A stretch of DNA of 64,000 nucleotides, from positions 1 through 64,000 of the forward strand of contig JAUCBJ010008014.1 of NCBI GenBank assembly GCA_032718475.1, read 5' to 3'. A model generated the notes under the pieces. It was not told the DNA's origin. It searched no databases and saw nothing but the letters and a program-made list of their open reading frames with translations. The stretch is from Nemertoderma westbladi (taxonomy: Eukaryota > Animalia > Xenacoelomorpha). The position numbers and the translations under genes are program-made. Of this stretch, positions 38,251-61,802 are shown in pieces (position 1 is the stretch's first letter; every line of letters starts with the position of its first letter).

Positions 38251-41200
38251 GTGCTATTTGCTTATAATTTTGAATAATTTAGAAATATATTGTAAAACTT
38301 AAATCTTAAGTAACCATATATTTTTCACCTCGGGTAATAAAGAGCAAGAGACAATATTAAAGAAAGAAAATAAAAATTGTTGAAACAAACAGAGAATAAC
38401 CATTACAAGAGAAGAAAGTGGTGGAAGATCGAAATATAAGAACGAACAGTTAGTAGGTATAAAAAATGTGACTAAGAGGATATTCAAATGTTTATTAGGA
38501 AAATATTTTAGACCGAGCTGTTATCATTGTAATAAATTGGAAAAAATTGACCTTTTTAGAGCAGATGAAAATTTGTTTTTTGATTTTTTTGAACGAATGT
38601 CGAGTGGCACCGAGTTCCAAATGACAGGACCTCGAAAACTCAGGGATCGTTGGGAAGAGCTAAGATTAAAAAGAGGAGTTGTGAAGTCGCCACGAACAGA
38701 AGATGTGGTCCATAAACGCCACACGTCATCCATAAACGCCACACGTGGTCCATAAACGCCACACGTGGTCCATATACGCCACACGTGGTCCATAAACTCC
38801 AGAAAGACCAAAATGTTGACAGTTAACTTTGAAAGTCCTCAGCAAGTCTCTGATCGGATGAGCATAAGCTCAAAGGATGGTATGCTTGAGCATGTGGATG
38901 ACTTCTGTTACCTGGGATCATGGATCCGGAAGTCAGGTGAGGACCTCCGAATACGTAAGGGAAAGGCATGGGCAGCCTTGAATAGGCTTTCCAGGATTTG
39001 GAAGTCACCGAGAATTAATCGGAAACTTAAGGTCCGATTATTTAGAGCAGCAGTAGTTCCAGTACTCCTCTATGGGAGTCCATGCTGGGCTCTAACTGCT
39101 GAGGACACCAAATCTCTGGCCGGCACATTCACAAGAAAGCTAGGCCGGGTTCATTGTGTCAAGTACAATGCACACATCTCCAACCAGACACTATATAACA
39201 ATGGAGGTGTCTCATTGGTTCCCCCAAGCTTGACACTAGAACAAAATCGCCTCCGCTTTGCAGGACATTGCTTTCGCCGTGAGGACCCGCCAGTGCATAA
39301 TCTTGTACTTTGGCAGCCTCATGGAGTGAATAAGCATGGTGGACAGCCCATGACTTTCTTGAGACGCATCTTAAAGGACACTGGCCTTGAAGATGCGGAT
39401 GATGTAGCAAATGTCATGGGTGATAGGGAGTTGTGGCGGCGCAATTTTGTCGACAAGCCGGCACAGCATTCTTAAAAATGCAGCTGCAATGCAGCATGCC
39501 GATACTAGTAGTAGTGGTCCATAAACGCCACCTCTGGTCCATAAATTTTCAATTTAGGGAAAGGAGCAGGTTACAGTGGCATGTTAATTTAACCAAAACA
39601 ATAAACTAAACACAATAGAACAGGTTACAGTTTTATATTTGAGTATAATCAGCTGTTATTTGCGTCTAATTTCCCTGGAGAGGATGAATTATTCTTATAA
39701 TTAATTATTTATTGCGTCCAGTCAGTCCCCCCCCCCCCCCCCCCCTCCTATCTGGGTAAATAACAACAACAACATGAACTAAAAAAAGTAAAAGTAAATC
39801 CTATGAAAGTAGATCCGGAAAAGTAAATCCTATGAAAGTAGATCCGGAAAAGTAAATCCTATGAAAGTAGATCCGGAAAAGTAAATCCTATGAATTTCTA
39901 TGGGAGTATTTTTCTTCCGCCAGGAAAAAAGTGTTGTCTTACAATACACCTAAAGACTTTGTTTGATAGAAGGCAATTCTCAGAATAAATGCTTTCATTC
40001 ATTAAACTTCGATCAGCCAGCCCCATTAGCTTACAGTTCCTTATGAACTACTGCATTATTATATAATCTATTTTTTATACTTTTACAGCTGTCTAACCCG
40101 CACGAATTTATCCTTCGAGTCCTTGGTTTAATTGGAGGAAGTCTGTCGCTGATTGGGCTGGTGCTCACAATTATTACGTATTTACTAGTATGGAGGTTTG
40201 TTACCAATACAACTACTACTAAGGAACTAGTGGTGCAGCATACGTTGAGGTGTGTCTGATACCTTCTGATACTAACTACTCTACTGTTGTCGTTGGTATT
40301 GCGATTACGTTTAAAAATTGCGAATCTATACAATTTTCCCTATCTGTATTTCCTTTATATTGTGTGTGTGGCGGAAGGTGGAAGGTGGAAGGTGGAAGGT
40401 TTCCATTGCCTAAAGATATTTCTACAGTAGTATTTCTTACAGCACAATATTCCGTATATATAATAACTTATAACTCTTAGGAGGAATTCTTACATTGGGA
40501 TCCGAGAACCTCTTTCTATTGTTCTCCTACATCTTGTAGACTCCAACTTCACTAGCATCGCTTGTTACATCTGACTCCCTCACCTCACTCATCATGTTGT
40601 TCTACTATTGTCTGTTTATTTTAGATTACTATCGTTTGAACGTAGCTTTGTTCTACTATTGTCTGTTTATTTTAGATTACTATCGTTTGAACGTAGCTTT
40701 GTTCTACTATTGTCTGTTTATTTTAGATTACTATCGTTTGAACGTAGCTTTGTTCTACTATTGTCTGTTTATTTTAGATTACTATCGTTTGAACGTAGCT
40801 TTGTTCTACTATTGTCTGTTTATTTTAGATTACTATCGTTTGAACGTAGCTTTGTTCTACTATTGTCTGTTTATTTTAGATTACTATCGTTTGAACGTAG
40901 CTTTGTTCTACTATTGTCTGTTTATTTTAGATTACTATCGTTTGAACGTAGCTTTGTTCTACTATTGTCTGTTTATTTTAGATTACTATCGTTTGAACGT
41001 AGCTTTGTTCTAATATTGTCTGTTTATTTTAGATTACTATCGTTTGAACGTAGCTTTGTTCTACTATTGTCTGTTTATTTTAGATTACTATCGTTTGAAC
41101 GTAGCTTTGTTCTAATATTGTCTGTTATTTTAGATTACTATTGTTTGAACGTAGCTTTGTTCTACTATTGTCTGTTTATTTTAGATTACTATCGTTTGAA

Positions 41201-44200
41201 CGTAGCTTTGTTCTACTATTGTCTGTTTATTTTAGATTACTATCGTTTGAACGTAGCTTTGTTCTAATATTGTCTGTTATTTTAGATTACTATTGTTTGA
41301 ACGTAGCTTTGTTCTACTATTGTCTGTTTATTTTAGATTACTATCGTTTGAACGTAGCTTTGTTCTACTATTGTCTGTTTATTTTAGATTACTATCGTTT
41401 GAACGTAGCTTTGTTCTACTATTGTCTGTTTATTTTAGATTACTATCGTTTGAACGTAGCTTTGTTCTACTATTGTCTGTTTATTTTAGATTACTATCGT
41501 TTGAACGTAGCTTTGTTCTACTATTGTCTGTTTATTTTAGATTACTATCGTTTGAACGTAGCTTTGTTCTACTATTGTCTGTTTATTTTATATTACTATC
41601 GTTTGAACGTAGCTTTGTTCTACTATTGTCTGTTTATTTTAGATTACTATCGTTTGAACGTAGCTTTGTTCTACTATTGTCTGTTTATTTTAGATTACTA
41701 TCGTTTGAACGTAGCTTTGGTCTACTATTGTCTGTTTATTTTAGATTACTATCGTTTGAACGTAGCTTTGTTCTACTATTGTCTGTTTATTTTAGATTAC
41801 TATCGTTTGAACGTAGCTTTGTTCTACTATTGTCTGTTTATTTTAGATTACTATCGTTTGAACGTAGCTTTGTTCTACTATTGTCTGTTTATTTTAGATT
41901 ACTATCGTTTGAACGTAGCTTTGTTCTACTATTGTCTGTTTATTTTAGATTACTATCGTTTGAACGTAGCTTTGTTCTAATATTGTCTGTTTATTTTAGA
42001 TTACTATCGTTTGAACGTAGCTTTGTTCTACTATTGTCTATTTATTTTAGATTACTATCGTTTGAACGTAGCTTTGTTCTACTATTGTCTGTTTATTTTA
42101 GATTACTATCGTTTGAACGTAGCTTTGTTCTACTATTGTCTGTTTATTTTAGATTACTATCGTTTGAACGTAGCTTTGTTCTACTATTGTCTGTTTATTT
42201 TAGATTACTATCGTTTGAACGTAGCTTTGTTCTACTATTGTCTGTTTATTTTAGATTACTATCGTTTGAACGTAGCTTTGTTCTACTATTTTCTGTTTAT
42301 TTTAGATTACTATCGTTTGAACGCAGCTTTGTTCTAATATTGTCTATTTATTTTAGATTACTATCGTTTGAACGTAGCTTTGTTCTAATATTGTCTGTTT
42401 ATTTTAGATTACTATTGTTTGAACGTAGCTTTGTTCTACTATTGTCTGTTATTTTAGATTACTATCGTTTGAACGTAGCTTTGTTCTACTATTGTCTGTT
42501 TATTTTAGATTACTATCGTTTGAACGTAGCTTTGTTCTACTATTGTCTGTTATTTTAGATTACTATTGTTTGAACGTAGCTTTGTTCTACTATTGTCTGT
42601 TTATTTTAGATTACTATCGTTTGAACGTAGCTTTGTTCTACTATTGTCTATTTATTTTAGATTACTATCGTTTGAACGTAGCTTTGTTCTACTATTGTCT
42701 GTTTATTTTAGATTACTATCGTTTGAACGTAGCTTTGTTCTACTCTTGTCTATTTATTTTAGATTACTATCGTTTGAACGTAGCTTTGTTCTACTATTGT
42801 CTATTTATTTTAGATTACTATCGTTTGAACGTAGCTTTGTTCTACTATTGTCTGTTTATTTTAGATTACTATCGTTTGAACGTAGCTTTGTTCTACTATT
42901 GTCTATTTATTTTAGATTACTATCGTTTGAACGTAGCTTTGTTCTACTATTGTCTATTTATTTTAGATTACTCCGTTTGAACGTAGCTTTGTTCTACTAT
43001 TGTCTGTTTATTTTAGATTACTATCGTTTGAACGTAGCTTTGTTCTACTATTGTCTGTTTATTTTAGATTACTATCGTTTGAACGTAGCTTTGTTCTAAT
43101 ATTGTCTGTTTATTTTAGATTACTATCGTTTGAACGTAGCTTTGTTCTACTATTGTCTATTTATTTTAGATTACTATCGTTTGAACGTAGCTTTGTTCTA
43201 CTATTGTCTGTTTATTTTAGATTACTATCGTTTGAACGTAGCTTTGTTCTACTATTGTCTGTTTATTTTAGATTACTATCGTTTGAACGTAGCTTTGTTC
43301 TACTATTGTCTGTTTATTTTAGATTACTATCGTTTGAACGTAGCTTTGTTCTACTATTGTCTGTTTATTTTAGATTACTATTGTTTGAACGTAGCTTTGT
43401 TCTACTATTGTCTGTTTATTTTAGATTACTATCGTTTGAACGTAGCTTTGTTCTACTATTGTCTGTTTATTTTAGATTACTATCGTTTGAACGTAGCTTT
43501 GTTCTACTATTGTCTGTTTATTTTAGATTACTATCGTTTGAACGCAGCTTTGTTCTAATATTGTCTATTTATTTTAGATTACTATCGTTTGAACGTAGCT
43601 TTGTTCTACTATTGTCTGTTTATTTTAGATTACTATCGTTTGAACGTAGCTTTGTTCTACTATTGTCTGTTTATTTTAGATTACTATCGTTTGAACGTAG
43701 CTTTGTTCTAATATTGTCTGTTTATTTTAGATTACTATCGTTTGAACGTAGCTTTGTTCTACTATTGTCTATTTATTTTAGATTACTATCGTTTGAACGT
43801 AGCTTTGTTCTACTATTGTCTGTTTATTTTAGATTACTATCGTTTGAACGTAGCTTTGTTCTAATATTGTCTATTTATTTTAGATTACTATCGTTTGAAC
43901 GTAGCTTTGTTCTACTATTGTCTATTTATTTTAGATTACTCCGTTTGAACGTAGCTTTGTTCTACTATTGTCTGTTTATTTTAGATTACTATCGTTTGAA
44001 CGTAGCTTTGTTCTACTATTGTCTATTTATTTTAGATTACTATCGTTTGAACGTAGCTTTGTTCTACTATTGTCTATTTATTTTAGATTACTATCGTTTG
44101 AACGTAGCTTTGTTCTACTATTGTCTATTTATTTTAGATTACTATCGTTTGAACGTAGCTTTGTTCTACTATTGTCTGTTTATTTTAGATTACTATCGTT

Positions 44201-47200
44201 TGAACGTAGCTTTGTTCTACTATTGTCTATTTATTTTAGATTACTATCGTTCGAACGTAGCTTTGTTCTACTATTGTCTGTTTATTTTAGATTACTATCG
44301 TTTGAACGTAGCTTTGTTCTACTATTGTCTGTTTATTTTAGATTACTATCGTTTGAACGTAGCTTTGTTCTACTATTGTCTGTTTATTTTAGATTACTAT
44401 CGTTTGAACGTAGCTTTGTTCTACTATTGTCTGTTTATTTTAGATTACTATCGTTTGAACGTAGCTTTGTTCTACTATTGTCTGTTTATTTTAGATTACT
44501 ATCGTTTGAACGTAGCTTTGTTCTACTATTGTCTGTTTATTTTAGATTACTATCGTTTGAACGTAGCTTTGTTCTACTATTGTCTGTTTATTTTAGATTA
44601 CTATCGTATGAACGTAGCTTTGTTCTACTATTGTCTATTTATTTTAGATTACTATCGTTTGAACGTAGCTTTGTTCTACTATTGTCTGTTTATTTTAGAT
44701 TACTATCGTTTGAACGTAGCTTTGTTCTACTATTGTCTATTTATTTTAGATTACTATCGTTTGAACGTAGCTTTGTTCTACTATTGTCTATTTATTTTAG
44801 ATTACTATCGTTTGAACGTAGCTTTGTTCTACTATTGTCTGTTTATTTTAGATTACTATCGTTTGAACGTAGCTTTGTTCTACTATTGTCTGTTTATTTT
44901 AGAATACTATCGTTTGAACGTAGCTTTGTTCTACTATTGTCTGTTTATTTTAGATTACTATCGTTTGAACGTAGCTTTGTTCTACTATTGTCTATTTATT
45001 TTAGATTACTATCGTTTGAACGTAGCTTTGTTCTACTATTGTCTGTTTATTTTAGATTACTATCGTTTGAACGTAGCTTTGTTCTACTATTGTCTGTTTA
45101 TTTTAGATTACTATCGTTTGAACGTAGCTTTGTTCTACTATTGTCTGTTTATTTTAGATTACTATCGTTTGAACGTAGCTTTGTTCTCATCAATCTTTGC
45201 TTTGCGTTGTTTGTTGCGATTCTGCTGTTCCTAATTGGAGTGGAAGGTCACGGGTTTCTAAATGTTAGTAGACATGTCTCTATATAACATTCTGGTTGTA
45301 CTTCTGTAACAGTTCTACTTTATTCCTTACAGGATTCTGGTTGTACTTCTTTAACAGTTCTACTTTATTCCTTACAGGATTCTGGTTGTACTTCTTTAAC
45401 AGTTCTACTTTATTCCTTACAGGATTCTGGTTGTACTTCTTTAACAGTTCTACTTTATTCCTTACAGGATTCTGGTTGCCCTTCTGTAACAGTTCTACTT
45501 TATTCCTTACACAGGATTCTGGTTGTACTGCTGTAACAGTTCTACTTTATTCCTTACAGGATTCTGGTTGTACTGCTGTAGCAGTTCTACTTTATTCCTT
45601 ACAGGATTCTGGTTGCCCTTATGTAACAGTTCTACTTTATTCCTTACACAGGATTCTGGTTGTACTGCTGTAACAGTTCTACTTTATTCCTTACAGGATT
45701 CTGGTTGTACTTCTGTAACAGTTCTACTTTATTCCTTACAGGATTCTGGTTGTACTTCTTTAACAGTTCTACTTTATTCCTTACAGGATTCTGGTTGCCC
45801 TTCTGTAACAGTTCTACTTTATTCCTTACACAGGATTCTGGTTGTACTGCTGTAACAGTTCTACTTTATTCCTTACAGGATTCTGGTTGTACTGCTGTAG
45901 CAGTTCTACTTTATTCCTTACAGGATTCTGGTTGCCCTTATGTAACAGTTCTACTTTATTCCTTACACAGGATTCTGGTTGTACTGCTGTAACAGTCCTA
46001 CTTTATTCCTTACAGGATTCTGGTTGCCCTTCTGTAACAATTCTACTCTATTCCTTACAGGATTCTGGTTGCCCTTCTGTAACAGTTCTACTTTATTCCT
46101 TACACAGGATTCTGGTTGCACTGCTGTAACAGTTCTACTTTATTCCTTACAGGATTCTGGTTGCCCTTCTGTAACAGTTCTACTTTATTCCTTACAGGAT
46201 TCTGGTTGTACTTCTGTAACAGTTCTACTTTATTCCTTACACAGGATTCTGGTTGCACTGCTGTAACAGTTCTACTTTATTCCTTACAGGATTCTTGTTG
46301 TACTGCTGTAACAGTTCTACTTTATTCCTTACAGGATTCTGGTTGTACTGCTGTAACAGTTCTACTTTATTCCTTACAGGATTCTGGTTGTACTTCTGTA
46401 ACAGTTCTACTTTATTCCTTACAGGATTCTGGTTGCCCTTCTGTAATAGTTCTACTTTATTCCTTACAGGATTCTGGTTGCCCTTCTGTAACAGTTCTAC
46501 TTTATTCCTTACAGGATTCTGGTTGTACTTCTGTAACAGTTCTACTTTATTCCTTACAGGATTCTGGTTGCCCTTCTGTAACAGTTCTACTTTATTCCTT
46601 ACACAGGATTCTGGTTGCACTGCTGTAACAGTTCTACTTTATTCCTTACAGGATTCTGGTTGCACTGCTGTAACAGTTCTACTTTATTCCTTACAGGATT
46701 CTGGTTGTACTGCTGTAACAGTTCTACTTTATTCCTTACAGGATTCTGGTTGTACTTCTGTAACAGTTCTACTTTATTCCTTACAGGATTCTGGTTGCCC
46801 TTATGTAACAGTTCTACTTTATTCCTTACACAGGATTCTGGTTGTACTGCTGTAACAGTCCTACTTTATTCCTTACAGGATTCTGGTTGCCCTTCTGTAA
46901 CAATTCTACTCTATTCCTTACAGGATTCTGGTTGCCCTTCTGTAACAGTTCTACTTTATTCCTTACAGGATTCTGGTTGCCCTTCTGTAACAGTTCTACT
47001 TTATTCCTTACACAGGATTCTGGTTGTACTGCTGTAACAGTTCTACTTTAATCCTTACAGGATTCTGGTTGTACTTCTGTTGCAGTTCTACTTTATTCCT
47101 TACAGGATTCTTGTTGTACTTCTGTAACAGTTCTACTTTATTCCTTACAGGATTCTGGTTGCCCTTCTGTAACAGTTCTACTTTATTCCTTACAGGATTC

Positions 47201-50200
47201 TGGTTGCCCTTCTGTAACAATTCTACTCTATTCCTTACAGGATTCTGGTTGCCCTTCTGTAACAGTTCTACTTTATTCCTTACACAGGATTCTGGTTGTA
47301 CTGCTGTAACAGTTCTACTTTAATCCTTACAGGATTCTGGTTGTACTTCTGTAACAGTTCTACTTTATTCCTTACAGGATTCTGGTTGCCCTTCTGTAAC
47401 AGTTCTACTTTATTCCTTACACAGGATTCTGGTTGTACTGCTGTAACAGTTCTACTTTAATCCTTACAGGATTCTGGTTGTACTTCTGTTGCAGTTCTAC
47501 TTTATTCCTTACAGGATTCTGGTTGTACTGCTGTAACAGTCCTACTTTATTCCTTACAGGATTCTGGTTGCCCTTCTGTAACAATTATACTCTATTCCTT
47601 ACAGGATTCTGGTTGCCCTTCTGTAACAGTTCTACTTTATTCCTTACAGGATTCTGGTTGCCCTTCTGTAACAGTTCTACTTTATTCCTTACAGGATTCT
47701 GGTTGCCCTTCTGTAACAGTTCTACTCTATTCCTTACAGGATTCTGGTTGCCCTTCTGTAACAGTTCTACTTTATTCCTTACAGGATTCTGGTTGCCCTT
47801 CTGTAACAGTTCTACTTTATTCCTTACAGGATTCTGGTTGCCCTTCTGTAACAGTTCTACTCTATTCCTTACAGGATTCTGGTTGCCCTTCTGTAACAGT
47901 TCTACTTTATTCCTTACACAGGATTCTGGTTGCCCTTCTGTAACAGTTCTACTTTATTCCTTACAGGATTCTGGTTGCCCTTCTCTAACAGTTCTACTTT
48001 ATTCCTTACAGGATTCTGGTTGCCCTTCTGTAACAGTTCTACTTTATTCCTTACAGGATTCTGGTTGCCCTTCTGTAACAGTTCTACTTTATTCCTTACA
48101 GGATTCTGGTTGCCCTTCTGTAACAGTTCTACTCTATTCCTTACAGGATTCTGGTTGCCCTTCTGTAACAGTTCTACTCTATTCCTTACAGGATTCTGGT
48201 TGCCCTTCTGTAACAGTTCTACTTTATTCCTTACACAGGATTCTGGTTGCCCTTCTGTAACAGTTCTACTTTATTCCTTACAGGATTCTGGTTGCCCTTC
48301 TCTAACAGTTCTACTTTATTCCTTACAGGATTCTGGTTGCCCTTCTGTAACAGTTCTACTTTATTCCTTACAGGATTCTGGTTGCCCTTCTGTAACAGTT
48401 CTACTTTATTCCTTACAGGATTCTGGTTGCCCTTCTGTAACAGTTCTACTCTATTCCTTACAGGATTCTGGTTGCCCTTCTGTAACAGTTCTACTTTATT
48501 CCTTACAGGATTCTGGTTGCCCTTCTGTAACAGTTATACTTTATTCCTTACAGGATTCTGGTTGCCCTTCTGTAACAGTTCTACTTTATTCCTTACAGGA
48601 TTCTGGTTGCCCTTCTGTAACAGTTCTACTTTATTCCTTGCAGGATTCTGGTTGCCCTTCTCTAACAGTTCTACTTTATTCCTTACAGGATTCTGGTTGC
48701 ACTGCTGTAGCAGTTCTACTTTATTCCTTACAGGATTCTGGTTGCCCTTCTGTAACAGTTCTACTTTATTCCTTACAGGATTCTGGTTGCCCTTCTGTAA
48801 CAATTCTACTCTATTCCTTACAGGATTCTGGTTGCCCTTCTGTAACAGTTCTACTTTATTCCTTATAGGATTCTGGTTGCCCTTCTGTAACAGTTCTACT
48901 TTATTCCTTACAGGATTCTGGTTGCCCTTCTGTAACAGTTCTACTTTATTCCTTACAGGATTCTGGTTGCCCTTCTGTAACAGTTCTACTGTATTCCTTA
49001 CAGGATTCTAGTTGCCCTTCTGTAACAGTTATACTTTATTCCTTACAGGATTCTGGTTGCCCTTCTGTGACAGTTCTACTTTATTCCTTACAGGATTCTG
49101 GTTGTACTGCTGTTACAGTTCTACTTTATTCCTTACAGGATTCTGGTTGCACTGCTGTAACAGTTCTACTTTATTCCTTACAGTATTCTGGTTGTACTGC
49201 TGTAACAGTTCTACTTTATTCCTTACAGGATTCTGGTTGCCCTTCTGTAACAGTTATACTTTATTCCTTACAGGATTCTGGTTGCCCTTCTGTAACAGTT
49301 CTACTTTATTCCTTACAGGATTCTGGTTGCCCTTCTGTAACAGTTCTACTTTATTCCTTACAGGATTCTGGTTGCCCTTCTGTAACAGTTATACTTTATT
49401 CCTTACAGGATTCTGGTTGCCCTTCTGTAACAGTTCTACTTTATTCCTTACAGGATTCTGGTTGCCCTTCTGTAACAGTTCTACTTTATTCCTTGCAGGA
49501 TTCTGGTTGCCCTTCTCTAACAGTTCTACTTTATTCCTTACAGGATTCTGGTTGCACTGCTGTAGCAGTTCTACTTTATTCCTTACAGGATTCTGGTTGC
49601 CCTTCTGTAACAGTTCTACTTTATTCCTTACAGGATTCTGGTTGCCCTTCTGTAACAGTTCTACTTTATTCCTTACAGGATTCTGGTTGCACTTCTGTAG
49701 CAGTTCTACTTTATTCCTTACAGGATTCTGGTTGCCCTTCTGTAACAATTCTATTTTATTCCTTACAGGATTCTGGTTGCCCTTCTGTAACAGTTCTACT
49801 TTATTCCTTACAGGATTCTGGTTGCCCTTCTGTAACAGTTCTACTTTATTCCTTACAGGATTCTGGTTGTACTGCTGTAACAGTTCTACTTTATTCCTTA
49901 CAGTATTCTGGTTGCACTGCTGTAACAGTTCTAATTTATTCCTTACATGATTCTGGTTGTACTGCTGTAGCAGTTCTACTTTATTCCTTACGGGATTCTG
50001 GTTGTACTGCTGTAACAGTTCTAATTTATTCCTTACAGGATTCTGGTTGCCCTTCTGTAACAGTTCTACTGTATTCCTTACAGGATTCTGGTTGCCCTTC
50101 TCTAACAGTTCTACTTTATTCCTTACAGGATTCTGGTTGTACTGCTGTAGCAGTTCTACTTTATTCCTTACGGGATTCTGGTTGTACTGCTGTAACAGTT

Positions 50201-53200
50201 CTACTTTATTCCTTGCAGGATTCTGGTTGCCCTTCTCTAACAGTTCTACTTTATTCCTTACAGGATTCTGGTTGCACTGCTGTAGCAGTTCTACTTTATT
50301 CCTTACAGGATTCTGGTTGCCCTTCTGTAACAGTTCTACTTTATTCCTTACATGATTCTGGTTGCCCTGCTGTAACAGTTCTACTTTATTCCTCACAGGA
50401 TTCTGGTTGCCCTTCTGTAACAGTTCTACTTTATTCCTTACAGGATTCTGGTTGCCCTTCTGTAACAGTTCTACTTTATTCCTTACAGGATTCTGGTTGC
50501 ACTTCTGTAGCAGTTCTACTTTATTCCTTACAGGATTCTGGTTGCCCTTCTGTAACAATTCTATTTTATTCCTTACAGGATTCTGGTTGCCCTTCTGTAA
50601 CAGTTCTACTTTATTCCTTACAGGATTCTGGTTGCCCTTCTGTAACAGTTCTACTTTATTCCTTACAGTATTCTGGTTGCACTGCTGTAACAGTTCTAAT
50701 TTATTCCTTACATGATTCTGGTTGTACTGCTGTAGCAGTTCTACTTTATTCCTTACAGGATTCTGGTTGCCCTTCTGTAACAGTTATACTTTATTCCTTA
50801 CAGGATTCTGGTTGCCCTTCTGTAACAGTTCTACTTTATTCCTCACAGGATTCTGGTTGCCCTTCTGTAACAGTTCTACTTTATTCCTCACAGGATTCTG
50901 GTTGCCCTTCTGTAACAGTTCTACTTTATTCCTTACAGGATTCTGGTTGCACTTCTGTAGCAGTTCTACTTTATTCCTTACAGGATTCTGGTTGTACTTC
51001 TACTTTATTCCTTACAGGATTCTGGTTGCCCTTCTGTAACAGTTCTACTTTATTCCTTACAGGATTCTGGTTGCCCTTCTGTAACAATTCTATTTTATTC
51101 CTTACAGGATTCTGGTTGCCCTTCTGTAACAGTTCTACTTTATTCCTTACAGGATTCTGGTTGCCCTTCTGTAACAGTTCTACTTTATTCCTTACAGTAT
51201 TCTGGTTGCACTGCTGTAACAGTTCTAATTTATTCCTTACATGATTCTGGTTGTACTGCTGTAGCAGTTCTACTTTATTCCTTACAGGATTCTGGTTGTA
51301 CTGCTGTAACAATTCTATTTTATTCCTTACAGGATTCTGGTTGCCCTTCTGTAACAGTTCTACTTTATTCCATACAGGTTTCTGGTTGCCCTTCTGTAAC
51401 AGTTCTACTTTATTCCTTACAGGATTCTGGTTGCCCTTCTGTAACAGTTCTAATTTATTCCTTACAGGATTCTGGTTGTACTTCTGTAGCAGTTCTACTT
51501 TATTCCTTACAGGATTCTGGTTGTACTGCTGTAGCAGTTATACTTTATTCCTTACAGGATTCTGGTTGCCCTTCTGTAACAGTTCTACTTTATTCCTTAC
51601 AGGATTCTGGTTGCCCTTCTGTAACAGTTCTACTTTATTCCTTACAGGATTCTGGTTGTACTGCTGTAACAGTTCTACTTTATTCCTTACAGGATTCTGG
51701 TTGCCCTTCTGTAGCAGTTCTACTTTATTCCTTACAGGATTCTGGTTGCCCTTCTGTAACAGTTCTACTTTATTCCTTACAGGATTCTGGTTGCACTGCT
51801 GTAACGGTTCTACTTTATTCCTTACAGGATTCTGGGTGCCCTTCTGTAACAGTTCTACTTTATTCCTTACAGGATTCTGGTTGCACTGCTGTAGCAGTTC
51901 TACTTTATTCCTTACAGGATTCTGGTTGTACTGCTGTAACAGTTCTACTTTATTCCTCACAGGATTCTGGTTGCCCTTCTGTAACAGTTCTACTTTATTC
52001 CTCACAGGATTCTGGTTGCCCTTCTGTAACAGTTCTACTTTATTCCTTACAGGATTCTGGTTGTACTGCTGTAGCAGTTATACTTTATTCCTTACAGGAT
52101 TCTGGTTGCCCTTCTGTAACAGTTCTACTTTATTCCTTACAGGATTCTGGTTGTACTGCTGTAGCAGTTATACTTTATTCCTTACAGGATTCTGGTTGCC
52201 CTTCTGTAACAGTTCTACTTTATTCCTTACAGGATTCTGGTTGCCCTTCTGTAACAGTTCTACTTTATTCCTTACAGGATTCTGGTTGTACTGCTGTAAC
52301 AGTTCTACTTTATTCCTTACAGGATTCTGGTTGCCCTTCTGTAGCAGTTCTACTTTATTCCTTACAGGATTCTGGTTGCCCTTCTGTAACAGTTCTACTT
52401 TATTCCTTACAGGATTCTGGTTGCACTGCTGTAACGGTTCTACTTTATTCCTTACAGGATTCTGGGTGCCCTTCTGTAACAGTTCTACTTTATTCCTTAC
52501 AGGATTCTGGTTGCACTGCTGTAGCAGTTCTACTTTATTCCTTACAGGATTCTGGTTGTACTGCTGTAACAGTTCTACTTTATTCCTCACAGGATTCTGG
52601 TTGCCCTTCTGTAACAGTTCTACTTTATTCCTCACAGGATTCTGGTTGCCCTTCTGTAACAGTTCTACTTTATTCCTTACAGGATTCTGGTTGCCCTTCT
52701 GTAACAGTTCTAGTTTATTCCTTACAGGATTCTGGTTGCCCTTCTGTAACAGTTCTACTTTATTCCTTACAGGATTCTGGTTGTACTGCTGTAACAGTTC
52801 TACTTTATTCCTTACAGGATTCTGGTTGCCCTTCTGTAACAGTTCTACTTTATTCCTTACAGGATTCTGGTTGCCCTTCTGTAACAGTTCTACTGTATTC
52901 CTTACAGGATTCTGGTTGCCCTTCTGTGACAGTTCTACTTTATTCCTTACAGGATTCTGGTTGTACTTCTGTAACAGTTATATTTTATTCCTTACAGGAT
53001 TCTGGTTGTACTGCTGTAACAGTTCTACTTTATTCCTTACATGATTCTGGTTGTACTGCTGTAACAGTTCTACTTTATTCCTTACAGGATTCTGGTTGCC
53101 CTTCTGTAACAGTTCTACTTTATTCCTTACAGGATTCTGGTTGTACTGCTGTAACAGTTCTACTTTATTCCTCACAGGATTCTGGTTGCCCTTCTGTAAC

Positions 53201-56200
53201 AGTTCTAGTTTATTCCTTACAGGATTCTGGTTGCCCTTCTGTAACAATTATATTTTATTCCTTACAGGATTCTTGTTGTACTTCTGTAGCAGTTCTACTT
53301 TATTCCTTACAGGATTCTGGTTGCCCTTCTGTAACAGTTCTACTTTATTCCTTACAGGATTCTGGTTGCACTTCTGTAGCAGTTCTACTTTATTCCTTAC
53401 AGGATTCTGGTTGCCCTTCTGTAACAATTCTATTTTATTCCTTACAGGATTCTGGTTGCCCTTCTGTAACAGTTCTACTTTATTCCTTACAGGATTCTGG
53501 TTGCCCTTCTGTAACAGTTCTACTTTATTCCTTACAGGATTCTGGTTGTACTGCTGTAACAGTTCTACTTTATTCCTTACAGGATTCTGGTTGCCCTTCT
53601 GTAACAGTTCTACTTTATTCCTTACAGGATTCTGGTTGCCCTTCTGTAACAGTTCTACTTTATTCTTTACAGGATTCTGGTTGCACTGCTGTAGCAGTCC
53701 TTCTACATTATTTCTTCCTCTCCGTGTTCACTTGGATGTTGAACGAAGGAATTCTCTATTATCTCAACGTAGTCGTTATATTTGAACGGGAGGTTTCCTG
53801 GAAATGGATTTATTTAGGTATCGGTTGGGGTGCGCCGTTATTGGTAGTTGGTATTTCGGCTGGTGCCAGCCAACTCAATGGATACTCGTACGAACGGCCA
53901 GGGGGAGATGTTATGTAAGTATTTATCTTTGGGATATAATAAAGTATTATTTTAATATTTGTTTAACTAAAATAGATATGCCGACTATGTTTATTTTAGT
54001 TTATTTTCTACTTTATATACCTCAACAGTAGGTTCAGTTTAGTTTATTTTCTACTTTATATACCTCAACATTAGGTTTAGTTTATTTTATACTTTATATA
54101 CCTCAACATTAGGTTTAGTTTAGTTTATTTTATACTTTATATACCTCATCAGTAGGTTTAGTTTAGTTTATTTTCTACTTTATATACCTCAACAGTAGGT
54201 TTAGTTTAGTTTATTTTCTACTTTATATACCTCAACATTAGGTTTAGTTTAGTTTATTTTCTACTTTATATACCGCAACATTAGGTTTAGTTTAGTTAAT
54301 TTTTACTTTATATACCTCAACAGTAGGTTTAGTTTAGTTTATGTTCTACTTTATATAGCTCAACATTAGGTTTAGTTTATTTTCTACTTTATATACCTCA
54401 ACATTAGGTTTAGTTTAGTTTATTTTCTACTTTATATACCGCAACATTAGGTTTAGTTTAGTTAATTTTTACTTTATATACCTCAACAGTAGGTTTAGTT
54501 TAGTTTATGTTCTACTTTATATAGCTCAACATTAGGTTTAGTTTAGTTTATTTTCTACTTTATATACATCAACAGTAGGTTTAGTTTAGTTTATTTTCTA
54601 CTTTATATACCTCAACATTAGGTTTAGTTTAGTTTATTTTCTACTTTATATACCTCAACATTAGGTTTAGTTTAGTTTATTTTCTACTTTATATACCTCA
54701 ACATTAGGTTTAGTTTAGTTTATTTTCTACTTTATATACCTCAACAGTAGGTTCAGTTTAGTTTATTTTCTACTTTATATACCTCAACATTAGGTTTAGT
54801 TTATTTTATACTTTATATACCTCAACATTAGGTTTAGTTTAGTTTATTTTCTACTTTATATACCTCAACAGTAGGTTTAGTTTAGTTTATTTTCTACTTT
54901 ATATACCTCAACATTAGGTTTAGTTTAGTTTATTTTCTACTTTATATACCTCAACATTAGGTTTAGTTTAGTTTATTTTCTACTTTATATACCTCAACAG
55001 TAGGTTCAGTTTAGTTTATTTTCTACTTTATATACCTCAACATTAGGTTTAGTTTAGTTTATTTTCTACTTTATATACCTCAACATTAGGTTTAGTTTAG
55101 TTTATTTTCTACTTTATATACCTCAACAGTAGGTTCAGTTTAGTTTATTTTCTACTTTATATACCTCAACATTAGGTTTAGTTTAGTTTATTTTCTACTT
55201 TATATACCTCAACAGTAGGTTCAGTTTAGTTTATTTTCTACTTTATATACCTCAACATTAGGTTTAGTTTATTTTATACTTTATATACCTCAACATTAGG
55301 TTTAGTTTAGTTTATTTTCTACTTTATATACCTCAACAGTAGGTTTAGTTTAGTTTATTTTCTACTTTATATACCTCAACATTAGGTTTAGTTTAGTTTA
55401 TTTTCTATTTTATATACCTCAACAGTAGGTTCAGTTTAGTTTATTTTCTACTTTATAACCTCAACATTAGGTTTAGTTTAGTTTATTTTCTACTTTATAT
55501 ACCTCAACATTAGGTTTAGTTTTGTTTATTTTCTACTTTATATACCTCAACAGTAGGTTTAGTTTAGTTCATTTTCTACTTTATATACCTCAACAGTAGG
55601 TTTAGTTTAGTTTATTTTCTACTTTATATACCTCAACAGTAGGTTTAGTTTATTTTCTACTTTATATACCTCAACATTAGGTTTAGTTTAGTTTATTTTC
55701 TACTTTATATACCTCAACATTAGGTTTAGTTTAGTTTATTTTCTACTTTATATACCTCAACATTAGGTTTAGTTTAGTTTATTTTCTACTTTATATACCT
55801 CAACAGTAGGTTTAGTTTAGTTTATTTTCTACTTTATATACCTCAACATTAGGTTTAGTTTAGTTTATTTTCTACTTTATATACCTCAACAGTAGGTTTA
55901 GTTTAGTTTATTTTCTACTTTATATACCTCAACAGTTAAGAAAAAATTTAGTGTATTGTATACTTTATGTAACTCGACAGTTGGTTTTATTTAGTGTTTT
56001 GTATACTTTATGATTCCTTTCCAGATGCTGGTTAGATCCTTCCGTTGGTGTTTTGTATGCCTTCATAGGCCCCGCAGTAGCTATAGCCGTGGCTAACATG
56101 GTGGTTATTGTTATTGTACTCAGAACGATGTTTAAAAGCTCGGCTTTTAATAAAAAATCGGAGATAGAACAGATCAAGTGAGTTACATTGAACAGATCAA

Positions 56201-59200
56201 GTGAGTTACATTGAATTATCTCCTGGATAGAACAGATCAAGTGAGTTACATTGAATTATCTCCTGGATAGAACAGATCAAGTGAGTTACATTGAACAGAT
56301 CAAGTGAGTTACATTGAATTATCTCCTGGATAGAACAGATCAAGTGAGTTACATTGAATTATCTCCTGGATAGAACAGATCAAGTGAGTTACATTGAATT
56401 ATCTCCTGGATAGAACAGATCAAGTGAGTTACATTGAATTATCTCCTGGATAGAACAGATAAAGTGAGTTACATTGAATTATCTCCTGGATAGAACAGAT
56501 CAAGTGAGTTACATTGAATTATCTCCTGGATAGAACAGATCAAGTGAGTTACATTGAATTATCTCCTGGATAGAACAGATCAAGTGAGTTACATTGAATT
56601 ATCTCCTGGATAGAACAGATCAAGTGAGTTACATTGAACAGATCAAGTGAGTTACATTGAATTATCTCCTGGATAGAACAGATCAAGTGAGTTACATTGA
56701 ACAGATCAAGTGAGTTACATTGAATTATCTCCTGGATAGAACAGATCAAGTGAGTTACATTGAATTATCTCCTGGATAGAACAGATCAAGTGAGTTACAT
56801 TGAATTATCTCCTGGATAGAACAGATCAAGTGAGTTACATTGAATTATCTCCTGGATAGAACAGATCAAGTGAGTTACATTGAACAGATCAAGTGAGTTA
56901 CATTGAATTATCTCCTGGATAGAACAGATCAAATGAGTTACATTGAATTATCTCCTGGATAGAACAGATCAAGTGAGTTACATTGAATTATCTCCTGGAT
57001 AGAACAGATCAAGTGAGTTACATTGAATTATCTCCTGGATAGAACAGATCAAGTGAGTTACATTGAATTATCTCCTGGATAGAACAGATCAAGTGAGTTA
57101 CATTGAATTATCTCCTGGATAGAACAGATCAAGTGAGTTACATTGAATTATCTCCTGGAATGTTTTAATTCAGGTACATATCGCCAAATATGTAAAAACA
57201 AGACAATATAAACATAACAATTTCGTGTAGAAATAGCTGAGATATCGTCGTTGGGAAGCTGCATGATTTAGACTGCGAGGCTATTTAATTGCTAAACCAC
57301 ATCGTAATAAACCCCCGCAACTCATCATGGGTTGATATTCTGAGGATTTGTAAATATTGTCTCTCACTAGCATCGCGTTGTATTTATTGTCTTGGAAATC
57401 ATTTTTTCAATATTCACCATTTCGTTAGTAATACAGTACAATAAACCCAATAACATTCAACGCTATTGCTGCTGGAAAAATATTCTTTTTGTGATTTCAA
57501 CCACACCTACAAACACCTACACAATTTAATTATAAATAGAGATGTTTATGATATTAATATTAATATTATTGCATTTGTGTTTAACATCCATAGATTGTAT
57601 AAATCATTAAGTAATTAAACAGGACTAAGGATGAACCAACTCCGTGGTGTAGGTGTTAGCATACCTGAACGTTTATCGGGAGACGCGGGTTCGATCCCCG
57701 CTGGTGGCGAATTCATTTTTTCCGCTCCATTTGCTATAGAGTTGGATCATCCTTAGTCCTGTTTAATTACTTAATAAAATATTAATATTAATATTATATT
57801 ATAATATTATTTTATGCATTTTATTTTATTTATTTTATTTTATTTTTCATATTTTATGTCTGCACTTTTAGCTTTAGGTGCGTTTTTCGATATTAACTTT
57901 TCTGTTTTTGTGTTGTAGGGGAGGCGTTTGGAGTTTATGCGTTATTGTTCCAGTTTTCGGAGTCTCTTGGGTGATCGGTGTTTTTGCTGTAACTGAAGAG
58001 GCAGTCGTGTTACAATATTTATTCAATATATTAATCTCGACTCAGGTTAGTGAAATTATATATTTGGGTTTCTTATTGCACCATCAGCTCGGGTTAGCCG
58101 ACCTCTAATCCGAATGTCTCTAATTATTATCATTTTCGCTCGGTTCAGTTTAGTAAATTAAGCAATGACGTCCAGGTGGGATCGAACTGGTGACCTCCGG
58201 GTTGCTCTAACCATTCAGCTAACGGCTCAGGTAAAAGATAGACCCGGAAATACTATCTGATACCTTGTATGTCCGCAATTGACCTCCTCATTGCCTCCCA
58301 TCTGCCAATGCCATCATATGCTGCCACTGTGCTCAACCCTACAGTACTTGGCCGTCTTTAACCAACCGTCTACAATGAAAGGATAGTGTGTATATTAACC
58401 ATGAACCATCTCGGTCATTTGATTCATTCTACCCTTTCATTGTAGCGAGTGGTTAAAGGCGGCCAAGTACTGTAGGATTGAGCCCAGTGGCAGCATATGA
58501 TGGTATTGACAGATAGGAGGCCATGAGGAGGTAAATTGCGGACATACAAGGTATCAGATAGTATTTCCGGGTCTATCTTTTACCTGAGCCGTTAGCTGAA
58601 TGGTTATACCAACCCGGACCAGTTCGATCCCACCTGGACGTCATTGTCGAATTCGCTAAACTGCGCCCAACGAATATTATAGTAATATCTAATATAAAAC
58701 CACTAATTTTGCCTTAAATACCTCTAATATCCCATTTCCTGTAAACAACATAACAAGAAAATGGTATTTTAAGTTTCGCCATTTTGTTTAACACAATGAA
58801 ATATTAGAGTAAAATCACTAGTAACTACTTATGAAACGCGACCATTTCGTACATGTTCAGTATGTTACGGATTAACGTTAGGTTATTAACTGTTCATTCA
58901 CTCTGGTTGAATTCAACTACTCCAATGATACGATTACAAATTGATTTAAGTCTCAAACATTTTGTTTTATTAAATTGTCTGTCAATAGTATTATTAAATC
59001 ATGAAAAAAAAACAATAAATAGTTGCGTTACCTGCAATGATGTTATTATTCTGTGGCGCGGATTACCATAATGCGGCTATTATTATTATGTAACACATAT
59101 AATGTGGCAACGAATATCGCTACATCAACATTTACAATAAATAATATACATAAATACAGAAAACAAATTTTGTAGATCTTTATGGACCAGTTTTCTGGGA

Positions 59201-61802
59201 ATTTATCAGACTCGTAGTTATTGTCGGACAGACTAACTCGACTATTCTCGAACTAACACACGTCACCAACTCGACTATTCTCGAACTAACTCACGTCACC
59301 AACTCGACTATTCTCGAACTAACTCACGTCACTAACTCGACTATTCTCGACCTAACTCACGTCACTAACTCGACTATTCTCGATCTAACTCACGTCACTA
59401 ACTCGAATATTGTTCAATAAACTACAATTAGTTAACTATTTTCTTAAACAATAATTTACTATGTTCTCTTTTTGTATTTCAGGGAGTTTTTATATTTATT
59501 TTTCATTGTCTCATGGCGAAACCTGTGCGAGACGCGTTGCGGAGGAAAGGATACTTAGCGAAAGGGATTAGAGGACCTCGATCTGGTACAAGTAGTGCGG
59601 TAAGTAATAGAAAGGATTAGAAGCAACAGATCTGGTACAAGCGGTGCGGTAAGTAATAGAAAGGATTAGAGGCAACAGATCTGGTACAAGCAGTGCGGTA
59701 AGTAATAGAAAGGATTAGAGGCAACAGATCTGGTACAAGCAGTGCGGTAAGTAATAGAAAGGATTAGAGGCAACAGATCTGGTACAAGCAGTGCGGTAAG
59801 TAATAGAAAGGATTAGAGGCAACAGATCTGGTACAAGCAGTGCGGTAAGTAATAGAAAGGATTAGAGGCAACAGATCTGGTACAAGTAGTGCGGTAAGTA
59901 ATAGAAAGGATTAGAAGCAACAGATCTGGTACAAGCGGTGCGGTAAGTAATAGAAAGGATTAGAGGCAACAGATCTGGTACAAGCAGTGCGGTAAGTAAT
60001 AGAAAGGATTAGAGGCAACAGATCTGGTACAAGCAGTGCGGTGAGTAATAGAGAGGATTAGAGGCAACAGATCTGGTACAAGCAGTGCGGTAAGTAATAG
60101 AAAGGATTAGATGCAACAGATCTGGTACAAGCAGTGCGGTAAGTAATAGAAAGGATTAGAGGCAACAGATCTGGTACAAGCGGTGCGGTAAGTAATAGAA
60201 AGGATTAGAGGCAACAGATCAGTGCGGTAAGTAATAGAAAGGATTAGAGGCAACAGATCTGGTACAAGCAGTGCGGTAACTAATAGAAAGGATTAGAGGC
60301 AACAGATCTGGTACAAGCAGTGCGGTAAGTAATAGAAAGGATTAGAGGCAACAGATCTGGTACAAGCAGTGCGGTAAGTAATAGAAAGGATTAGAGGCCC
60401 TCGATCTGGTACAAGTAGTGCGGTAAGTAATAGAAAGGATTAGAGGCAACAGATCTGGTACGAGCAGTGCGGTAAGTAATAGAAAGGATTAGAGGCAACA
60501 GATCTGGTACAAGCAGTGCGGTAAGTAATAGAGAGGATTAGATGCAACAGATCTGGTGCAAGCAGTGTGGTAAGTAATAGAAAGGATTAGAGGCTACAGA
60601 TCTGGTACAAGCAGTGCGGTAAGTAATAGAAAGGATTAGAGGCAACAGATCTGGTACAAGCAGTGCGGTAAGTAATAGAAAGGATTAGAGGCAACAGATC
60701 TGGTACAAGCAGTGCGGTAAGTAATAGAAAGGATTAGAGGCAACAGATCTGGTACAAGTAGTGCAGTAAGTAATAGAAAGGATTAGAGGCAACAGATCTG
60801 GTACAAGTAGTGCAGTAAGTAATAGAAAGGATTAGAGGCAACAGATCTGGTACAAGCAGTGCGGTAAGTAATAGAAAGGATTAGAGGCAACAGATCTGGT
60901 ACAAGCAGTGCGGTAAGTAATAGAAAGGATTAGAGGCAACAGATCTGGTACAAACAGGGCGGTAAGTAATAGAAAGGATTAGAGGCAACAGATCTGGTAC
61001 AAGCAGTGCTGTAAGCTGATTAGAAATATGGAACAAATTATAATTTTGAATGGGAGAGTCTTTAATGCTCATCAATCCAACGAATACCTGTTCGCATCAT
61101 AAACAGAAAGGAGACACAGCAAGACTCGCCTCAGTCTGCTGGAATCAATTACTGGGCTGATTTACATGCTAATAAACTCCTCCCTGCTTACTGTATAGTT
61201 GTCACATAGGAGTAGGCCAGAACCAAAGTTCGGCTAACAGATACACTTTGCTGTGTGACAATACCGCATGGCAGCTTTGTGAGAGCGCAATGGTGACCTA
61301 TTACATAGGGTTTGGGTTACAGCGCTCCGAAAACACGGAGGGCGCTGTTAAAGAGAAGTCAAAACGTGACGAAAATCCGCCGTGCTGTCACTGCGAATGT
61401 AAATATGTGAACCGGGATTAAGATAAAAGTTTATTTCATTAGATTTTTTAAATGTTTTTAATTTAATTAAAGTTTAATTGATTCGAATAGGCCGATCCCC
61501 CGACGTTGTCTACCACGGCTCGGAAGAGTTCGGCATTCCCGTCGTCTTCATCCAATCCCGATTCGATGACGAAGAAATACAGTAAAAGTAATTGGTCCAA
61601 TCACAAGATCGAGTTGAATACGAGATCCCCGACTCCTCCAATGAACGCTGCCGGTGATTCGAACTCAATCAAGCCGTTGATAGAGATCCAACCAGCTGTT
61701 ATCGCAACCACTGGGGTCAAACAGCAGTTAGATATTGACGAATTAGCTGATAGTTCAGGTAGAAATAAACATGATCTACTACTGGAAACAACTAATACTT
61801 AA
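26689..61802 (+). CDS. Adhesion GPCR (class B2, latrophilin/ADGRD-like), spliced, 5'-incomplete: exons 26689-26814, 27174-27358, 27925-28031, 35622-35779, 40089-40195, 45158-45263, 53673-53914, 56025-56177, 57919-58045, 59483-59599, 61491-61802
   Basis: Manual splicing gives one open 1740-nt frame with GT-AG introns and consistent phases (0,2,1,0,2,0,2,2,0,0). It encodes GAIN-B strands, GPS CVYW..W..C.SDHL/TNFAVLM and 7TM motifs NLC, LLHYFFLSVFTWMLNEG, GWGAP, CWL, AFIGP, FGVSW and STQGVFIFIFHC. Confidence 0.92.
26935..27083. mobile_element. Degenerate palindromic MITE-like element
   Basis: tgcaaag...cagcgtta.agaccc..gtttatttatgta pairs with tacataaataaac.cgggtc.taacgctg...ctttgca. Confidence 0.6.
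27174..27358 (+). CDS. aGPCR exon, GAIN domain (VIIVYKL...VNIPASVIS...VTVVGSFFPTL)
   Basis: tttctatatag acceptor, open frame, aaag|gttata donor, GAIN-B-like pattern. Confidence 0.8.
27925..28031 (+). CDS. aGPCR exon, GAIN domain (NETVATKVISLTIDPPPNTPLEDPISYRLELL)
   Basis: tttag acceptor and aaag|gtaagt donor. Resembles the GAIN pattern V.S.VIS.....L..PV...L. Confidence 0.85.
28628..35547. repeat. 62-bp minisatellite, ~111 apparently identical copies
   Basis: Unit gacctcccgaccactcccaccgttgaactgatgtatcctattggtagtggccgatatattcg. No variant seen by eye. Confidence 0.98.
35622..35779 (+). CDS. aGPCR exon encoding GPS autoproteolysis site and Stachel (MCVYWDPSNSSWSPKGL...CQSDHL/TNFAVLM)
   Basis: ttttag acceptor, gag|gtaagt donor, canonical HL/T cleavage triad and TNFAVLM tethered agonist. 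Confidence 0.95.
36303..37088 (-). CDS. Intronless nested gene: PPPDE/LRAT-like permuted papain-fold (NlpC/P60) protein with two C-terminal TM helices, 261 aa
   Basis: ATG in good context (GCTATGG). THWALII (catalytic His strand) precedes Y.LINRNCQEW (NC catalytic Cys). Two hydrophobic segments lie near the C-terminus. Confidence 0.8.
   Translation of the reverse strand: MANAEVETQIVVEKLSDQMQIKSFYITGKVLDATIKSTRSSRPSKPADQLNAQLMKEPTPLTHWALIIYCHDSKEVIRAELGKSGFRIKAFWNELGQGTDKIPDDAIKIVEIKVTLDQVRDAVMNNDVNGRLYRLINRNCQEWVMEVATCLGFAEAVENAGVTTIGTKLTPKQRTVLTIMVIIFIIHLMSSVGFIIGSVYDTTNNYLFPMGIGTMSVSGVGMIIICMGTFFNIYSKNRDRNISKERLAKNRIKENYNTIDV
38052..38702 (-). mobile_element. 5'-truncated CR1/L2-clade LINE 3' end
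   Basis: The - strand reads QRSLSFRGPVIWNSVPLDIRSKKSKNKFSSALK, a typical ORF2 C-terminus, then a 3' UTR and an (AAT)n-like tail at ~38052-38091. Confidence 0.75.
38798..39513 (+). mobile_element. 5'-truncated RTE-clade LINE (RT thumb/C-terminus) with (TAG)n tail
   Basis: KTKML...VDDFCYLGSWI...RKGKAWAALNRLSRIWKS...KVRLFRAAVVPVLLYGS..W...LRFAGHC, with tail tactagtagtag. Flanked on both sides by gtggtccataaac. Confidence 0.9.
39791..39894. repeat. 29-bp tandem repeat (~3.5 copies)
   Basis: Unit aaagtaaatcctatgaaagtagatccgga. Confidence 0.9.
40089..40195 (+). CDS. aGPCR exon, TM1 (HEFILRVLGLIGGSLSLIGLVLTIITYLLVW)
   Basis: ttttacag acceptor, ag|gtttg donor, typical TM1 pattern IG.SLS..GL.LTI.TY. 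Confidence 0.92.
40597..45187 (+). repeat. 51-bp array (~90 copies) of the TM2-exon 3' splice junction
   Basis: Unit ttgttctactattgtctgtttattttAG|attactatcgtttgaacgtagct. The last copy runs into the exon. Confidence 0.97.
45158..45263 (+). CDS. aGPCR exon, ICL1-TM2 (LLSFERSFVLINLCFALFVAILLFLIGVEGHGFLN)
   Basis: The acceptor is the last copy of the 51-bp array. aat|gttagt donor; NLC..L...L.FL.G motif. Confidence 0.88.
45289..53698 (+). repeat. 45-bp array (~187 copies) of the TM3-exon 3' splice junction
   Basis: Unit tctactttattccttacAG|gattctggttgcccttctgtaacagt. The last copy is the true acceptor and exon start. Confidence 0.97.
53673..53914 (+). CDS. aGPCR exon, TM3-TM4 (DSGCTAVAVLLHYFFLSVFTWMLNEG...GIGWGAPLLVVGIS)
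   Basis: The acceptor is the last copy of the 45-bp array. at|gtaagt donor; hallmark class B TM3/TM4 motifs. Confidence 0.95.
53996..55935. repeat. 43-bp AT-rich intronic minisatellite (~45 copies)
   Basis: Unit ttattttctactttatatacctcaaca(g/t)taggtttagtttagt. Confidence 0.96.
56025..56177 (+). CDS. aGPCR exon, ECL2-TM5 (CWLDPSVGVLYAFIGPAVAIAVANMVVIVIVL)
   Basis: tttccag acceptor and aa|gtgagt donor (first copy of the 40-bp array). CWL and AFIGP motifs. Confidence 0.95.
56163..57159 (+). repeat. 40-bp (and 23-bp) array of the TM5-exon 5' splice junction (~27 donors)
   Basis: Unit gatagaacagatcaa|GTGAGTtacattgaattatctcctg. The first copy is the exon end. Confidence 0.96.
57606..57775. mobile_element. 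170-bp MITE with 37-bp TIRs enclosing a tRNA-like Pol III cassette
   Basis: TIRs at 57606-57642 and 57739-57775 (1 mismatch). Inside are an A box TGGTGTAGGTG, a T-arm GCGGG-TTCGATC-CCCGC and T6 at 57716-57721. Confidence 0.8.
57919..58045 (+). CDS. aGPCR exon, TM6-TM7 (VWSLCVIVPVFGVSWVIGVF...LQYLFNILISTQ)
   Basis: tgttgtag acceptor, cag|gttagt donor, P.FG.SW and YLF..L.S.Q motifs. Confidence 0.93.
58123..58686. mobile_element. Foldback/palindromic element (~220-bp arms) with outward-facing tRNA-like heads
   Basis: 58163-58386 is the reverse complement of 58429-58646 around a ~42-nt loop. Each arm has TAGCTGAATGG...AGTTCGATCCC. Confidence 0.85.
59232..59406. repeat. 33-bp tandem repeat (~5 copies) rich in ACTAAC
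   Basis: Unit actaactcgactattctcgaactaactcacgtc. Confidence 0.9.
59483..59599 (+). CDS. aGPCR exon, end of TM7 and helix 8 (GVFIFIFHCLMAKPVRDALRRK)
   Basis: tttcag acceptor and gcg|gtaagt donor (first copy of the 49-bp array). QG.FIF.FHC motif. Confidence 0.95.
59560..61015 (+). repeat. 49-bp array (~30 copies) of the TM7/H8-exon 5' splice junction
   Basis: Unit gaaaggattagaggcaacagatctggtacaagcagtgcg|GTAAGTaata. The first copy is the exon end. Confidence 0.96.
61491..61802 (+). CDS. aGPCR probable terminal exon, Ser/Thr/Pro-rich cytoplasmic tail
   Basis: aatag acceptor in phase 0, open to TAA at 61800-61802, AATAAA at 62039. An internal cag|gtagaa donor is possible. Confidence 0.7.
   Translation, partial: ADPPTLSTTARKSSAFPSSSSNPDSMTKKYSKSNWSNHKIELNTRSPTPPMNAAGDSNSIKPLIEIQPAVIATTGVKQQLDIDELADSSGRNKHDLLLETTNT

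Follow-up and report, generated by a model that had tools for sequence, protein, structure and literature searches.

An intact adhesion GPCR gene within a 64,000 nt stretch of Nemertoderma westbladi DNA (the window) carries minisatellites whose repeat units span its exon-intron boundaries. The phenomenon is already published, as 'mirages' (PMC3087553, PMC3902484) and as the human F7 VNTR, and the gene is a dense, very high-copy new example of the mirage class, most likely produced by slippage that is tolerated; minisatellites make up 70% of the locus. We give a probability of about 0.7 to the reading that five independent junction minisatellites were born by slippage and are tolerated as neutral DNA, with splicing choosing the copy beside the full exon. 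The survivorship alternative of the initial annotation, in which tolerated junction duplications grow into the intron, fits the data.

The receptor gene and its arrays

The exon model consists of nine AG/GT-bounded exons on the + strand (27966-62016), spliced in silico (Table 1). They give one continuous open frame, from the GPS exon onward and with a stop at 62016. Pfam cut-offs were passed by the GPS exon (GPS) and by the TM3-TM4, TM5 and TM6 exons (7tm_2); in this exon-by-exon search there was no 7tm_2 or GAIN match for the TM1, TM7 and GAIN1 exons. A GPS motif followed by a secretin-type 7TM region (PF01825, PF00002) identifies the gene as an adhesion GPCR. The named proteins closest to it are ADGRD1-, L- and G-like, come from many animal groups and reach at most 57% identity over the TM3-TM4 exon. 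There is no close protein model among the four matches or the best 150 of 1,614, where single-stretch identities reach 58% at most. P0005, P0006 and P0009 are protein models with several 7TM stretches. P0007, which has nine repeated TM3 matches, was considered as a translated mirage and rejected, being an unrelated repeat ORF.

Other features lie in or close to the gene. An open, GAIN-like exon candidate at 27174-27358 has a 3' phase that clashes with the next model exon, and this clash is likely to point to a missing exon or another splice site. The GPS-TM1 intron holds an intact 261-aa ORF, antisense to the receptor (36303-37088, - strand), with sub-cut-off matches to DUF6540 (E 0.009) and PPPDE peptidase (E 0.02). 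A 236-aa ORF at 38765-39475 matches DUF6451 below the cut-off (E 1.4e-5) and resembles the end of a retroelement ORF; it is flanked by 20-bp tandem repeats (37821-38051 and 38705-38801, with another copy near 39515). In the TM6-TM7 intron two stretches at 58170-58660 look, as judged by eye, like mutually inverted copies.

Table 1. Exons of the receptor model and tandem arrays in the window
Feature	Position	Strand	Remarks
GAIN-region exon, likely	27966..28031	+	66 nt; AG/GT-bounded; frame agrees with GPS exon
GPS exon	35622..35779	+	Pfam PF01825, E 5.4e-14
TM1 exon	40089..40195	+	Exon model; weak tblastn match of ADGRD1 TM1
TM2 exon	45158..45263	+	Real acceptor 45158; 7tm_2 E only 0.035
TM3-TM4 exon	53673..53914	+	7tm_2 E 2.3e-19
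TM5 exon	56025..56177	+	7tm_2 E 6.4e-6
TM6 exon	57919..58045	+	7tm_2 E 7.7e-6
TM7 exon	59483..59599	+	Exon model; tblastn match of ADGRD1, E 0.002
Last coding exon, likely	61957..62016	+	In-frame, AG-bounded, contains stop; predicted from DNA
Array A	40597..45187	+	TM2 acceptor; 51-bp unit (28 intron nt up to the junction + 23 exon nt after it)
Array B	45289..53698	+	TM3 acceptor; 45-bp unit
Array C	56163..57159	+	TM5 donor; 40/23-bp units
Array D	59560..61015	+	TM7 donor; 49-bp unit
Array E	53989..~56035	+	43-bp unit, ~48 copies; decayed derivative of the TM5 acceptor
56-bp array	4033-17119		Donor-like motifs
34-bp array	17445-19983		Donor-like motifs
66-bp array	19950-24494		Donor-like motifs
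37-bp array (small)	35983-36080		203 nt from exon, without contact
29-bp array (small)	39790-39894		194 nt from exon, without contact
33-bp array (small)	59232-59411		71 nt from exon, without contact

Tandem Repeats Finder assigns 70% of the window to eight large arrays. In arrays A, B, C and D the tandem unit spans a real exon-intron boundary, and E is a diverged case. The first four had been described in the initial annotation as straddling exon boundaries of one GPCR, and Tandem Repeats Finder places all of them accordingly. The copy numbers given there for the TM2 acceptor, TM3 acceptor, TM5 donor and TM7 donor (about 90, 187, 27 and 30) are close to the 90, 186, 27 and 30 sites that we count. 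AG is present at 89 of the 90 acceptor positions in A and at 179 of the 186 in B; GT is present at 26 of the 27 donors in C and at all 30 in D. Removing the four real sites leaves 320 intact AG/GT decoys (88+178+25+29), in line with the earlier figure of more than 300 decoy splice sites.

Array B, which contains 54 distinct units, occupies the 8,409-nt TM2-TM3 intron except for 25 unique nt (45264-45288). The first donor of array C is immediately followed by an in-frame TGA. The array D unit is mostly exon plus a diverged intron start, and read-through there hits a stop after 7 codons. Homogenisation is local, with variants restricted to runs of units; 47-nt units, for example, are found only in B units 3-63. 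Terminal units are diverged in arrays D and E, and the distal E copies are decayed.

Array E, whose unit resembles the TM5 acceptor, is a fifth junction array that the initial annotation had overlooked. The comparison scores 46, against a shuffle mean of 26.5, and none of 2000 shuffles scored as high. The best of nine other acceptors reached 35 and the best of 535 background windows 42, a modest margin over AT-rich background (46 vs 42). Additionally, one intermediate copy at ~55940-55990 bridges the array unit and the TM5 acceptor. Counting A to E, 5 of the 12 junctions from TM1 to the last exon are affected.

None of the modelled junctions could be linked to the remaining large arrays (56, 34, 66 and 62 bp). 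For the 56-, 34- and 66-bp arrays, neither a strict AG/GT scan of the + strand nor the tblastn matches listed gave a convincing adjoining exon; these arrays may be mirages of exons that are short or non-coding. The 66-bp unit resembles the 34-bp unit with a 32-bp insert. The 62-bp array (28628-35547) ends 74 nt before the GPS acceptor and shows 100% identity over 111.6 copies, reflecting either a very recent expansion or assembly smoothing.

Probable origin of the arrays and a possible junction bias

Under the neutral reading, each array would have been born as a microhomology-seeded duplication between short direct repeats and would have grown by unequal exchange, in a locus where any array reaches kilobases. 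Only those duplications that expanded into the intron and left the exon whole would have survived. Short ancestral introns would raise the share of arrays that lie on junctions, and the exon might raise it too by protecting one end of the array from being deleted. At A, B and D, as at TM5, the proximal site would be selected by exon definition or first-donor scanning, and any use of C or D decoys would meet a stop. Exon definition is an established principle that favours proximal site choice.

The ends of the arrays can be compared with a slippage-birth model in which minisatellites arise from flanking direct repeats of 5-10 bp (Haber and Louis 1998; Taylor and Breden 2000, as far as they are summarised in PMC3389668). 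Array A agrees with this model in having exact end repeats of 7 nt, and so does B, in which the intron part of the unit is identical to exon +29..+44 at 14 of 16 positions (56 of 5000 shuffles reach this score). In contrast, the exact repeats at the ends of array C are 2 nt for the 40-bp unit and 3 nt for the 23-bp unit (11+15-23), below the 5-10 bp of the model and thus a point against neutral slippage, and the 5' end of B has no intron part. The B unit resembles exon +1..+44 nearly throughout, and on this resemblance the present TM3 acceptor may be exon-derived. Only 25 unique intron bases precede the array, whose first base is the homologue of exon base +2. Such a start does not follow from a single simple duplication; either a deletion reaching the junction removed most of the old intron, or the present acceptor was rebuilt out of the exon.

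The initial annotation had proposed that four arrays landing on junctions might reflect a mutational process favouring junctions. We compared the arrays with a null of random placement, in which each array was collapsed to one unit and wholly exonic positions were left out. The collapsed introns measure 732, 3,884, 422, 44, 106, 784, 1,290 and 950 nt. Four or five of 11 arrays straddle a junction against 0.58 expected (P 1.7e-3 for four, 1.2e-4 for five), and for the six arrays longer than 900 bp P is 3e-4 with four straddling and 9e-6 with five, values that come from one gene in a locus picked post hoc for this pattern from very many windows. They also depend on intron length. The probability of five or more is 0.003, 0.04, 0.18 and 0.45 for introns of 500, 250, 150 and 100 nt, and that of four or more is 0.40 at 150 nt and 0.70 at 100 nt. 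Introns of 150 nt or less at the time of the duplications would therefore leave no junction excess. Two of the collapsed introns, of 44 and 106 nt, are as short as the neutral reading would have it. However, six of the eight are not short (422-3,884 nt), and at 250 nt five or more straddling arrays would still be improbable.

A process that starts short tandem duplications preferentially at exon-intron boundaries, with products that are still neutral, is the least unlikely of the rival explanations, at roughly one chance in five in our judgement. It might consist of transcription- or splicing-linked breaks, or of recombination concentrated at exon edges. In its favour are the excess itself (four or five straddling arrays vs 0.4-0.6 expected, on 5 of 12 junctions) and the start of array B at exon +2. 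Additionally, of the six arrays that straddle no junction, four are no more than 205 nt away from an exon (1.9 expected, P 0.085), a weak hint that exon closeness, rather than the splice signal, matters. Against it, the excess comes from one gene chosen post hoc and depends on ancestral intron length, and the ends of A and C carry ordinary short direct repeats. Slightly more doubtful is a stronger form, in which the duplication mechanism itself targets splice junctions in this animal, exon edges across the genome seed kilobase arrays and acceptors are even rebuilt from the exon. Such rebuilding is suggested by the exon-like unit of array B together with the 25-nt intron remnant.

Splice-site use, drift of the copies and sequencing runs

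Six sequencing runs are listed, four of which contain part of the stretch; none is recorded as RNA. Run X1 belongs to study P1, and X2 and X3 to study P2. Run X4 holds a spliced contig of 2,027 nt (depth 72) spanning 56025-56182. Beyond this interval it continues 5' with the last 30 nt of the TM3-TM4 exon and 3' with the TM6 exon; the five bases past the TM5 donor equal the intron start at 4 of 5, by chance. The transcript joins 53914->56025 and 56177->57919. The one spliced contig thus shows use of the proximal TM5 acceptor (E) and the proximal TM5 donor (C), and regular splicing is undisturbed at both. This evidence comes from one run, and contigs drop rare forms. The presence of a spliced contig of this gene makes it likely that X4, though labelled 'DNA?', is an RNA library. 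The contig has three exon SNPs, two silent and one V to L, and since two of the three are common to the X2 genomic contig it suits mRNA of this locus better than an old retrocopy.

The X4 contig extends 1,362 nt 5' and 507 nt 3' unbroken. With one extra A unit, two extra B units or three extra D units, words of 31 letters would occur more than once, and a contig would be expected to break at such repeats. If the contig follows the exon model, its continuity would support proximal or near-proximal use at A, B and D, and it is compatible with a single extra B unit or with one or two extra D units. There are no X4 contigs on 45130-45332 (the TM2 exon with A and B units). This gap counts neither for nor against any reading, as chance filtering also loses the exon contig of X2 there and that of X1 elsewhere, and the missing cover of array units in X4 is given no weight either; the X4 contig may lack the TM2 exon. 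Upstream A sites would give ordinary exon sizes (157-310 nt), and the first B decoy would yield a normal-looking 69-nt intron.

The initial annotation had the exon-proximal copy giving the intact receptor. This copy does continue into the remaining exon in each case, but the other copies are not necessarily frameshifted. The lengths of units A (17 codons) and B (15 codons) are divisible by 3, and neither unit has a stop in the frame of the gene. An in-frame, stop-free mRNA would come from 24 of the 89 A acceptors and 58 of the 179 B acceptors, the real site included, and the open frames running into the exons measure 1,224 nt (A) and 2,712 nt (B). Decoy use at A and B would thus escape a stop, a point against the neutral reading.

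The same open frames would suit an explanation in which the A and B ladders serve as alternative 3' splice sites, inserting hydrophobic repeats of 17 or 15 residues ahead of TM2 or TM3 and thereby tuning or inactivating the receptor. We consider this improbable. Of the random acceptor-spanning duplications possible in this gene, 2,409 of 9,279 (26%) are in frame and open, array E (43 bp) is out of frame, and two of three acceptor units would be in frame with P about 0.17. Selection for in-frame units is rejected on the 26% chance rate. The substitution types in B are 10 synonymous, 19 non-synonymous and 2 stop, compared with 37:92:6 possible, and those in A are 3:8:0 compared with 39:106:8 possible; both match neutral expectation. 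Stops and frameshifts persist in the distal A and B units. The proximal 23 A and 59 B units have no frame-breakers, in windows that are set by the last frameshift and in which variants are clonal. The frame is preserved in A and B, but the copies lack the coding constraint that would mark a coding VNTR or an in-frame alternative acceptor cassette. Taken together, the chance rate, the frame of E and the neutral substitution types mean that the open units are not a sign of function. Additionally, if the exon model is followed, the unbroken X4 contig would disfavour at least one extra A unit or at least two extra B units.

It is very unlikely that the arrays act as recursive or stepwise splice points or as U1/U2AF sponges, as the initial annotation had also suggested. 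A recursive-splicing ratchet point is a juxtaposed acceptor and donor, AG|GT. Arrays A, C and D have none and B has one, and recursive splicing is therefore unsupported. The 320 intact decoys and the 45 AG|GT motifs of array E could be read in favour of such a role. However, the intron that holds E is only 2.1 kb and the distal copies of E are decayed, and the long introns owe their length to the arrays alone. AG-affecting variants account for 2 of the 31 variant types of B and 1 of the 11 of A, so that AG loss is neither favoured nor avoided and AG is not under selection. Taken together, splicing-level functions are unlikely (well below one chance in eight).

Finally, we give practically no weight to the arrays being assembly artefacts: although the array copy numbers are as in the assembly and the neighbouring 62-bp array is perfectly uniform, units of A and B with head-to-tail joins and many variants are found in contigs of X1, X2 and X3, arrays E and C are also present in contigs of X1 and of P2 runs (the 'goes back 42' joint of E in X1 and X2), and the distinct B units are locally clustered. 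X1 may be the assembly's own source, so it is P2 that provides independent support. A check on raw data had been called for; A, B, C and E occur in DNA runs from both studies, which refutes the artefact reading as to their existence. In X1 and X2, a contig at 55901 with about half the depth of unique sequence joins an E-like unit to sequence absent from the window; it may represent another allele or a second locus with an E-like unit.

Known systems and significance

Mirages are tandem repeats spanning exon-intron boundaries in amphioxus Adh3, the globins BflGb6 and BflGb9, troponin C and PGBD5; most units retain AG/GT, splicing is reported to be normal and the origin is called unclear (PMC3087553, PMC3902484). 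The arrays described here are similar in that the unit spans the boundary, in that AG/GT is kept in A to D in the proportions given above, in that regular splicing is undisturbed at the TM5 acceptor and donor, and in that there is concerted evolution within the array with divergent end units. They differ in having 27-186 copies, compared with 1-7 in the globin and PGBD5 cases (PMC3087553, PMC3902484), in affecting five junctions of one gene, in making up most of the intron length and in having two acceptor units in frame.

In the 37-bp VNTR of human F7 intron 7, the first unit spans the junction and identical 5' pseudo-sites follow downstream, yet splicing takes only the donor that lies furthest upstream (Borensztajn et al. 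2006, PMC1557585). That paper demonstrates first-donor scanning and shows by mutation that the pseudo-sites are functional. Array C resembles this case, as the most upstream of its identical donors is used in the X4 contig. In contrast, F7 has 5-9 sites, compared with 27-30 here, and involves donors only, and its pseudo-sites are mutation-proven (PMC1557585), whereas the decoys here are predicted from sequence.

The model of Rogers, as discussed in PMC3087553, has introns gained through duplication of proto-splice sites. The resemblance of the B unit to the exon, with a TM3 acceptor that is perhaps exon-derived, recalls this model, but a new intron position is not evident from this gene alone. 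The accessible text of PMC10078293 deals with splicing-associated repeats in general and holds nothing on junction-spanning units. A literature search found no paper on a human UPF3A VNTR case, and a full-text search, with most subscription journals outside its cover, found no genome-wide test of junction bias.

The five events in this one gene motivate such a genome-wide test. The gene is also a test case for splicing, as 23 A and 57 B upstream acceptors would give open mRNAs, and decoy use at A and B would therefore be countable without loss to nonsense-mediated decay. Arrays of this kind can mislead gene prediction and short-read mapping. If junction-aimed duplication is true, the gene would offer a natural series of up to 186 near-identical acceptors on which to measure 3' splice-site choice, and the 58 that are in frame would go unseen by stop-based surveillance.
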